Source of the DNA: a bacterium
Lineage (GTDB): Bacteria; Babelota; Babeliae; Babelales; JAUWHS01
Assembly (NCBI GenBank): GCA_043818275.1
Contig: JBDRFY010000088.1
Span: forward strand, 1-16,972
Direction of reading: 5' to 3'
DNA: 16,972 nt
Made by a program: the position numbers. Below, in pieces: positions 15,001-16,972 of this stretch. How positions within the stretch are numbered: the stretch's first letter is position 1; each line of letters begins with the position of its first letter.

Positions 15001-16972
15001 AACGAAGCAGAATTCAATAAAAAATATTTACAGTGGCTTGAAAGTTCCGGAAATACAGCGATGAAAATATACAACGAAACTAAAGCTCTTCCCGAACCAG
15101 AAAAAAGAAAATTATTAGAAGCAGCTCCAACAGAAAAAGGTAAAGAAGTTGAAATAACAGAAATAAAAGAAACAACAATTGAAGATATAGATTGATGTCA
15201 AATCTTTTTCAACCCAACAACAGAATTAGCACCGCCAAAACCGAATGAATTTGAGAGCGCGAAGTTTATCTTTGCGCTCTTTGCTTTTTTAGATACATAA
15301 TCAAGATCACAATGTTGATCCGGTTCATCTAAATTAATTGTTGGAGGCACAATCTGATTTTGCAAGGTTAAAGCTGTAATTGCTATTTCAAGCGCTCCAG
15401 CCGCGCCCAAAAGATGTCCCGTCATAGATTTGGTACTGCTGACTAAAATATGATTTTCATTTTTTTGATTAATATACTCACCAAAAACATCTTTTAATAT
15501 TTTAGTTTCAACAGGATCATTCATTGGAGTTCCGGTTCCATGTGCATTTATGTAATTAATTTGCTCTGGTGAAATTTGCGCATCCCGCAAAGCCAAATTT
15601 ATCGCGCGTTTGGCACCAAAACCCTCAGGATGCATTGCAGTTATATGATAAGCATCTGAAGTTGCGCCATAACCAATAATTTCAGCATAAATTTTTGCCC
15701 CACTTTTTTTCGCTGTTTCATAATTTTGCAAAATTAACACAGCGCTTCCTTCTGATAAAACAAATCCGGTTCTATTTTTATCAAAAGGTCGTGAAGCTTT
15801 TTTCGGGTCATCATTCCAGGTTGAAAGTGCCCGCATATTTCCAAACGCAGAAATTGAAAGCGGATTTATAGCACTTTCAGTTCCACCAGCCAAAGCATAA
15901 TCAGAATAACCGTCACGAATATTTCTAAACGCAAACCCAATCGCATCACTACTTGAAGAACACGCATTAACAATTGTAGTTAATTGTCCCTGTAAATTAT
16001 GTTTAATACTTATCCAGCTTGATGCTTCATTAGAAATTGATTTTGGAATTAAAAAAGGGGAAACTTTTTTTGTCCCACCCTGATTTAAATCATTTAGGCT
16101 CTCATAAATCGAATCGATTCCACCAACACCAATGCCCAAAAAAATTGAGAATCTATCCCGCGATTCAGGAAAAGAATTTGTAATTCCGGCGTCATTAAGT
16201 GCTTCGTTTGCCGCAATCATCGCAAGGTGAATAAATCGATCGGTTTTGCGTTGTTCATTTTTGGTCAGTACTTTATCCAGAATTTCTTGTTCATTTTTAA
16301 CAAGACCAAAAGATTTCCATGGCGTATTTTTTAGTAATTCATGTTCAAAAACAGAAAGACCCGAGCGACCATTAATTAATGATTGCCAGGAATCAGAGAC
16401 GTTATTTCCAACAGGATTAATCATACCGATTCCGGTTATAACAACCCGGTTTTCAGATAAACGTTTATTTTGAGTCGGCATATTGCTAAATAATATTATT
16501 TTGTTCTGGCAGAATGAATATGATTTATCGCGTCCTGAACAGTTTTGATTTTTTCAGCATCTTCATCTTTAATTTCAATGCCAAAAGTTTCTTCAAAACT
16601 CATAATCATTTCAACAATATCTAAAGAATCAGCGCCCAGATCATTTTTAAATGTTGATTCAATTGTGATGTTTTCTTTTGGAATACTTAATTTTTCAGCA
16701 ATTACATCTATCACTTTTTGCTGCGTATCTTCTTTTGAAAAACTCATTTTTAAATCTCCTTAAAGGTTTTTAATTTCGTAATTTAACCATAATAGCGAAA
16801 GTTTAAATTTTTTCCAGATCAAATTTTTTTCCTGTTAGAGCAATGTGATAATTTCCGGTAGTTGGGCAAAGTAAAAATTTCCTGTTGTGGCAAAATTAAA
16901 AAGATAAAAAATTTTTTTTTAACAATGCTAACAAACAGGAAACTATATGGAAATTATTACAATGAGTAAAAA

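Follow-up and report, generated by a model that had tools for sequence, protein, structure and literature searches.

Part of a type II fatty-acid synthase found with lipid A genes in Babelota: a probable one-turn source of 3-hydroxyacyl-ACP

The Babelota are bacteria that parasitize protists. The window, that is, the whole stretch of DNA analysed here (16,972 nucleotides, contig C88), belongs to a genome of this group, G000, which is 94% complete and divided into 92 contigs. Towards its end lie the following features:

15198..16481, minus strand: fabF, matching TIGR03150 with 533 bits (cut-off 494)
16496..16747, minus strand: acpP, an acyl carrier protein of 83 aa with the phosphopantetheine serine in a DSL motif, passing TIGR00517
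16756..16761, minus strand: AAGGAG, a Shine-Dalgarno-like motif read from the sequence, 8 nt upstream of the acpP start
16833..16972, plus strand: one end of a multicopy insertion sequence, in which a transposase-like ORF begins; the element has 7 matches, most of them at the ends of contigs

The acpP gene stands directly upstream of fabF, an arrangement shared with relatives, and the pair is intact; this fabF is the single FabF candidate that PF00109 detects in G000, and its close homologues carry the source names Dependentiae, Babeliales and TM6. The insertion-sequence end occupies the last 140 nt of the window, 86 nt upstream of acpP, and a related repeat, probably the other end of the same element, starts contig C10, which carries fabD-fabG. 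Since fabD-fabG-acpP-fabF are contiguous in G197, a genome of the same genus, the genes of C10 and C88 most likely constitute a single operon interrupted by the insertion sequence. A scan for promoters and terminators gave counts at chance level.

The remainder of the window contains three paralogous predicted outer-membrane barrels (1742-3187, 5179-6702 and 7092-8468; 6 matches in G000), whose paralogues frequently flank acpP/fabF in relatives. The first of them resembles the Phenol_MetA_deg family of channels by a structure match in the ESM Atlas (TM 0.69), a possible lead for host-lipid uptake. There are also a UppP-like undecaprenyl-diphosphatase (432-1328, below cut-off) and a multicopy gene of AAA-ATPase type (3470-5017), a fragment of which is found downstream of fabG on C10.

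When E. coli proteins were compared with all six-frame ORFs of G000, matches were found for FabD, FabG, AccC, AccB (BCCP) and BirA; AcpS is located on C33, and the carboxyltransferase is a single PccB-type protein of 528 aa, whose best family is methylmalonyl-CoA decarboxylase/PccB-like (646 bits, below cut-off) and whose substrate is putative. Of the features of a complete type II synthase, G000 therefore retains the elongating ketosynthase, malonyl transacylase, ketoreductase, ACP, AcpS and acetyl-CoA carboxylase. On the lipid A side it possesses LpxA, LpxC, LpxD, LpxB (2 copies), LpxK, LpxL, WaaA, KdsB/C/D, MsbA and LptB, so that the Raetz set (LpxA, C, D, H/I/G, B, K, WaaA, a late acyltransferase and MsbA/Lpt) is represented throughout, with LpxI below the NCBIfam cut-off.

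The list of what was sought and not found is longer. FabZ, FabH and PlsX gave no match in G000 even with phmmer --max, and the E. coli queries for FabA, FabI, YiiD, pyruvate dehydrogenase, AckA, Pta, CoaA and CoaBC found no such enzyme in it, the FabI query matching only FabG and a sugar-cluster SDR, and nothing in G010; second SDR matches are present in G041, G071 and G010. Neither a FabH/FabY nor a malonyl-ACP decarboxylase initiator was detected in G000, nor were PlsY, pyruvate:flavodoxin oxidoreductase, FadA/FadB, the Paa enzymes or four hot-dog thioesterases, and beta-oxidation was discarded, for this genome, as a source of 3-hydroxy chains or a means of shortening chains. The fatty-acid kinase route was ruled out because DegV is missing from all 5 genomes searched, G000 included. 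As no source of acetyl-CoA was found in G000 or G010, this compound may be imported; there are six nucleotide-transporter paralogues.

At the level of the group, PF07977 (FabZ/FabA; E<=0.05) matched 0 of 201 Babelota genomes at least 85% complete, among them the single-contig G041, while 9 of 14 controls rose above the cut-off. The genome-wide survey's note, which had reported no match in 21 Babelota and neither FabH nor enoyl reductase in this genome, is thus borne out, in the latter case for FabH and FabI by the E. coli queries on G000. MaoC-type dehydratases (PF01575) and FabK (PF03060, above cut-off) were each absent from 5 genomes. PF08545 gave weak matches in 13 of 43 genomes (best 4e-8), none of them G000, and the five examined were either operons with HMG-CoA synthase and thiolase or genes resembling type III PKS. 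A mevalonate operon of archaeal type, with genes for HMG-CoA reductase, HMG-CoA synthase, a thiolase and a DUF35-like protein, lies at L152-L155 of G041, G031, G115 and G017, adjoining an acetyl-CoA synthetase in G041; in G180, G183 and G166 (L146-L148) the type III PKS-like gene is flanked by methyltransferase-like and FAD oxidoreductase-like genes. The FabZ motif occurred in 0 of 10,138 frames of G000 and 0 of 879 ORFs of G010; the MaoC and FabI patterns failed their positive control and were uninformative.

An unrecognised enzyme was sought by comparing two whole genomes, G010 (864,343 nt), which bears the fab genes, and G008 (801,822 nt), which does not. Of 879 ORFs in G010, 632 match G000, and 216 of these are lost or weak in G008. 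A Pfam scan of 160 G010 proteins (95 of the 216 plus 65 others), the rest being passed over because they had a label already, were membrane proteins, could be recognised on inspection or were of unsuitable length (too long or short), contained no dehydratase, hot-dog or enoyl reductase family, FabV included; 46 of the 160 (32 + 14) belong to no Pfam family. The gene set is, then, an incomplete type II synthase, in which defining features that were sought were not found.

The distribution of these genes is closely linked to that of lipid A. LpxA is found in 40 of the 201 genomes, in families f1, f7, f11, f13, f16 and f17, and LpxC in 38. PF00109 matched 40 genomes, of which 35 were kept as FabF (32 full length, 3 fragments) once five weak thiolase-type matches had been dropped, G031 and G178 by inspection and G174, G187 and G200 by score; the weak matches in G041, G031, G115 and G017 are mevalonate-operon thiolases, and that in G178 is a PaaJ-like thiolase. 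FabF so defined accompanies 35 of the 40 LpxA-bearing genomes and none of the other 161, which reproduces on a larger scale the co-occurrence that the survey had noticed (4 of 5 against 0 of 36). The carboxyltransferase is present in 38 of the 40, with one partial match among the 161; in G181 it is broken. PF04613 was too insensitive to serve as an LpxD census (18 of 43 genomes, none above cut-off). Acs occurs in 24 of the 40 LpxA-bearing and 11 of the 161 other genomes, G000 not being among them. The presence of ACP (179 of 201 genomes) or of the 531-aa ligase described below (159 of 201) had to be rejected as a marker, both being phylum-wide. The survey's claim that the set survives only in LPS-bearing Babelota holds, in consequence, for FabF, FabG and the carboxyltransferase, which alone track lipid A, and fails for ACP, the ligase and fabD.

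Five genomes have LpxA without FabF. In G116 and G200 the locus is probably unassembled, because a strong ACP match is also missing; in G118 and G151 (f17) and in G031, acpP is followed by other genes and there is no FabG. The f17 pair also lacks the carboxyltransferase, which G031 retains. The loci of the f17 pair (L092, L096, L127, L131 and L145) hold lipid A genes, LpxA/C/D being present in both genomes, and an intact FabD, with two LpxD copies in G118. Lipid A genes can persist, therefore, without the FabF/FabG step.

The ancestral gene order is rpmF-plsX-x-gltX-fabD-fabG-acpP-fabF, with fabH missing from its usual slot, and the contiguous operons of G106, G010, G115, G077, G017 and G197 hold no extra enzyme. 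In 23 acpP loci fetched from LPS-less genomes (three of 13-14 kb and twenty of about 2.7 kb) neither fabG nor fabF was found, the three long ones showing both genes cleanly excised from the operon, while fabD is present in 20. The Cys-His-His triad, Lys and gate Phe of FabF are intact in 19 of 19 Babelota rows and 120 of 120 close homologues, the Ser-Tyr-Lys of FabG in 11 of 11 rows, and Gln11, Ser92, Arg117 and His201 of FabD in all 15 LpxA-bearing genomes compared. In 19 of 20 LPS-less genomes, by contrast, FabD is a full-length protein encoded near acpP (L081:5145-6065 and 18 further loci, G001-G199) that has lost Ser92 and Arg117 and, on the evidence of these residues, is catalytically dead. 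The exception, G111 (f10, L156), keeps Ser92, Arg117 and His201 and has no match to LpxA, LpxC, FabF, FabG or the carboxyltransferase; together with the f17 pair, it indicates that an intact FabD alone does not imply malonyl-ACP. The replacement of FabF Phe133 in 120 of 120 close homologues was set aside as a sign of long-chain specialisation, because the FabF of PDB 2alm/1ox0, which belongs to a full cycle, has Thr there. In G008 the dead FabD stands beside an ACP whose phosphopantetheine serine is replaced by Glu (L114:2054-2290), in a genome with no match to AcpS, CdsA, GpsA, PlsX or the ligase, and this pair suggests a non-lipid role.

These counts are not independent observations, as the survey's note had warned. 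The dead FabD rows form one clade with support 100/100 (35 rows, the truncated G164 being left out); in the unrooted ligase tree (32 of 46 rows) the LPS families group with f10 and f12, and three changes are needed; the GltX tree (21 rows) joins f17, with moderate support, to the remaining LPS rows as their sister group. On the basis of these single-gene trees, the pattern amounts to about three or four losses rather than 161 observations.

For the activation of fatty acids G000 has exactly two AMP-binding proteins, so that the adenylate-forming fold with intact motifs expected of an acyl-ACP synthetase is present. One is the 531-aa ligase (C60), whose best matches in NCBIfam, PDB and source names are long-chain acyl-CoA ligases. 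The other is an 825-aa fusion of AMP-binding, ACP and PlsC domains (C46:16067-18541; L026:2068-4542), with the only PlsC domain of the genome, a DSL serine in its ACP domain, and intact adenylation and PlsC-type motifs; it was seen in G010 and G041 and not in G005, G079, G151 or G008. At least two ACP-like matches occur in 25 of the 40 LpxA-bearing genomes. Either enzyme would be a candidate for loading free fatty acids on ACP. In the LPS-less G005 and G001, PlsX, ACP and the ligase are retained (as is PlsY, shown for G005), whereas FabD is dead and DegV missing, and hence something else must acylate their ACP. Among the families without the ligase, f6 has no ACP (0 of 14) and the others have mostly weaker ACP scores, and G008, likewise without it, has lost the ACP serine, AcpS, CdsA and PlsX. 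These patterns speak, indirectly, for a ligase that acts on ACP.

According to the available part of PMC6286764, the LpxA residues that bind the 3-hydroxyl of the donor are His122 and Gln73, together with a water on His99; in LpxD they are Asp232 and Gln236. The 33 Babelota loci supplied for LpxA gave 31 aligned rows, two of the loci contributing none. At position 122 there is His in 29 rows, and the two rows with Tyr are precisely those of the f17 genomes, against a background of His in 148 of 150 diverse LpxA and Tyr in none; every LpxA row from a genome with the fab genes retains His122. At position 73, Glu is found in G031, G143 and the f17 pair, and Gln in 137 of the 150. In LpxD, for which 24 rows from 23 genomes, all Babelota, were aligned, all three f17 rows (two copies in G118, and G151) show Tyr at position 236. 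G031 has Ser there, 19 rows have His, and G060 carries Met despite possessing FabF and FabG. G000 keeps LpxA Gln73 and His122 and LpxD Asp232, position 99 of its LpxA being Ser and position 236 of its LpxD His, and the sites are unchanged in G116 and G200, the probable assembly gaps. Thus, the loss of the FabF/FabG step appears to be accompanied by changed hydroxyl-binding sites, in two events, the effect of the Tyr being putative. LpxA His99 and the ruler positions 173/191 vary in the background set and were not used.

Chain length can be approached through LpxD 290, where M290A admits C16/C18 chains and the Gly of Chlamydia LpxD goes with the transfer of C20 (PMC6286764, in part). The residue is Gly or Ala in 24 of 24 Babelota rows, which predicts long 3-hydroxy chains (C16-C20). 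Beside lpxA, a GnnA-like dehydrogenase and LpxI follow directly in 32 of 33 loci (in G000, C75:12240-13984; L027); the best family of the former is UDP-GlcNAc 3-dehydrogenase, below cut-off, several DegT-type aminotransferases are GnnB candidates, and the neighbourhood suggests a 2,3-diamino backbone. In the usual fabZ slot before lpxA, G000 has a short gene, presumably spoVG-like, and a tRNA-like stretch.

Taken together, these data make it probable, as far as genes and residues can tell, that the LPS-bearing Babelota obtain 3-hydroxyacyl-ACP for LpxA and LpxD from scavenged fatty acids, by one round of elongation on FabF followed by reduction on FabG. A host fatty acid would be activated by the C60 ligase or the C46 fusion and would reach FabF as acyl-ACP, or possibly as acyl-CoA, while AccC, BCCP and the PccB-type carboxyltransferase would produce malonyl-CoA, to be loaded on ACP by a FabD with an intact active site. 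FabF would condense the two once and FabG would reduce the product to (R)-3-hydroxyacyl-ACP, the host chain plus two carbons, elongation stopping after this turn because there is no dehydratase. LpxA and LpxD would then take this donor by their known chemistry, and non-elongated acyl-ACP would go to LpxL and the phospholipid acyltransferases. There being no beta-oxidation, the product of a single turn fits the long-chain ruler of LpxD. The core of what the survey's note proposed is in this way strengthened, except that f17 and G031 hold lipid A genes without the device.

The manner of entry could be otherwise with the same product: the ligase would make acyl-CoA, taken directly by FabF, as FabH-type enzymes do in Pseudomonas and Xanthomonas, or transacylated by FabD. 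The ligase's resemblance to long-chain acyl-CoA ligases speaks for this, as do the intact FabD of f17, which has no malonyl route, and the precedent of octanoyl-CoA entering through FabH (PMC5941067, in part). The retention of PlsX, ACP and ligase next to a dead FabD and no DegV in G005 and G001, and the loss of the ACP serine, AcpS, CdsA and PlsX in the ligase-less G008, fit it poorly, and V. harveyi AasS is itself a member of the acyl-CoA synthetase family (by a title cited in PMC11271967); we regard this entry as an unlikely variant of the one-turn proposal, included in the probability given to it. A different objection sees in these genes the decaying remains of an ancestral synthase, in a clade where gene loss has simply gone less far, lipid A being built throughout from host 3-hydroxy chains or plain acyl-ACP. 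The GltX and ligase trees do place the LPS-bearing rows on one side, f17 manages without FabF and FabG, the carboxyltransferase of G181 is broken, and Chlamydia LpxA uses non-hydroxylated myristoyl-ACP (PMC6408518, in part); but the catalytic residues of FabF (120/120), FabG (11/11) and FabD (15/15) do not vary among five families with 48-75% identity, nor does His122 in any of the LpxA rows that accompany them, and we hold decay to be quite improbable.

That the cycle is nevertheless complete, with FabF initiating without FabH and a dehydratase and enoyl reductase that escaped recognition, is very improbable. It would profit from the 94% completeness of G000 with an assembly gap within the operon, from the loose prefilter of the genome search and from the 46 family-less proteins of G010, yet it must confront PF07977 at 0 of 201, the blank phmmer --max searches for FabZ and FabH in G000, six contiguous operons devoid of an extra enzyme and the missing FabZ motif, besides the consideration that there would be little reason for a complete cycle to follow lipid A in its distribution. 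Scarcely any weight, and the least of all, falls to the idea that the 3-hydroxyacyl- or 3-oxoacyl-ACP is destined for another product (a signal, an amino-acid lipid or the starter of a type III PKS, for example), its link to lipid A being shared ancestry: the independent events are few, and there are type III PKS-like genes in G180, G183 and G166 and a GNAT gene in G010, but no such synthase is among the 95 of 216 scanned proteins common to G000 and G010, and LpxA and LpxD still need a 3-hydroxy donor, their hydroxyl-binding sites changing where FabF and FabG are lost.

With the one-turn device as the preferred reading, the Babelota could be arranged in a series of three steps, about which we are in two minds and inclined slightly to doubt: fatty-acid auxotrophs with FabF, FabG and the carboxylase as a one-turn device, long 3-hydroxy chains and a diamino lipid A; then f17, which would have given up the device and, through Tyr at LpxA 122 (in place of His) and at LpxD 236, adapted both enzymes to make lipid A without 3-hydroxy chains from scavenged acyl-ACP; and finally the LPS-less families, where a dead FabD beside ACP, serine-less in G008, would have taken a non-lipid job.

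The need of lipid A for 3-hydroxyacyl-ACP is the explanation commonly offered for the inability of Gram-negatives to live on host fatty acids alone. If the proposal is true, the gene set would be a natural minimal solution, with four known activities and no cycle; it predicts a lipid A with long 3-hydroxy chains, of host length plus two carbons, and the f17 variants of LpxA and LpxD may accept non-hydroxylated chains. It also corrects the published claim that TM6 simply lack fatty-acid genes. Yeoh 2016 describes TM6 as without fatty-acid synthesis genes, with two genomes that make LPS, and its supplement lists KAS II, carboxyltransferase, biotin carboxylase, BirA and a second long-chain ligase family only in these two, while each of the seven genomes is credited there with FabD and an acyl-CoA ligase; in the available part of that paper there is no comment on the KAS II/carboxyltransferase pattern (PMC4776705). 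The portions at hand of PMC6561590, PMC12172432 and bioRxiv 2026.06.21.733656 have nothing on the module, and no description of a FabF-FabG set kept for lipid A without FabH, FabZ and FabI was found in the literature searched, most subscription journals lying outside it. Every part is a known enzyme; it is the half-cycle arrangement for which no description was found.

Compared with the type II synthase that feeds LpxA and LpxD in E. coli and Chlamydia trachomatis, the Babelota share the carboxylase, FabD, FabF, FabG, ACP, AcpS and the operon order plsX-fabD-fabG-acpP-fabF, and type II bacteria likewise draw off 3-hydroxyacyl-ACP for lipid A (PMC6167442, in part). They differ in that FabH, FabZ/FabA and enoyl reductase were not found, which leaves no cycle and no de novo chain, whereas Chlamydia keeps the entire cycle, and in having one PccB-type subunit where the E. 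coli type has AccA and AccD. A backbone of the 2,3-diamino kind is made through GnnA/GnnB in Acidithiobacillus, Leptospira and Legionella, and the Gfo/Idh/MocA dehydrogenase and LpxI after lpxA (32/33 loci), with two LpxB in G000, recall that pathway. The C46 fusion, like E. coli Aas, joins an adenylation domain to a PlsC-type acyltransferase, but with reversed domain order and an ACP domain of its own; the E. coli enzyme, for its part, sets free no acyl-ACP for lipid A (PMC11271967, PMC6167442, both in part). The nearest precedents are the acyl-ACP synthetases of Vibrio harveyi (AasS), Chlamydia (AasC) and Neisseria (AasN), through which exogenous fatty acid passes to ACP, is elongated and reaches lipid A (PMC11271967, in part), with AasS, elongation and FabG2 reduction documented in PMC5941067 (in part). 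In the available parts of these two sources and of PMC6167442 such scavenging feeds complete cycles, as a supplement, while in Babelota, where the synthetase activity is putative, it would be the sole source. The Babelota set most probably operates as the AasS-FabF-FabG-LpxA/D branch does, detached from the cycle.
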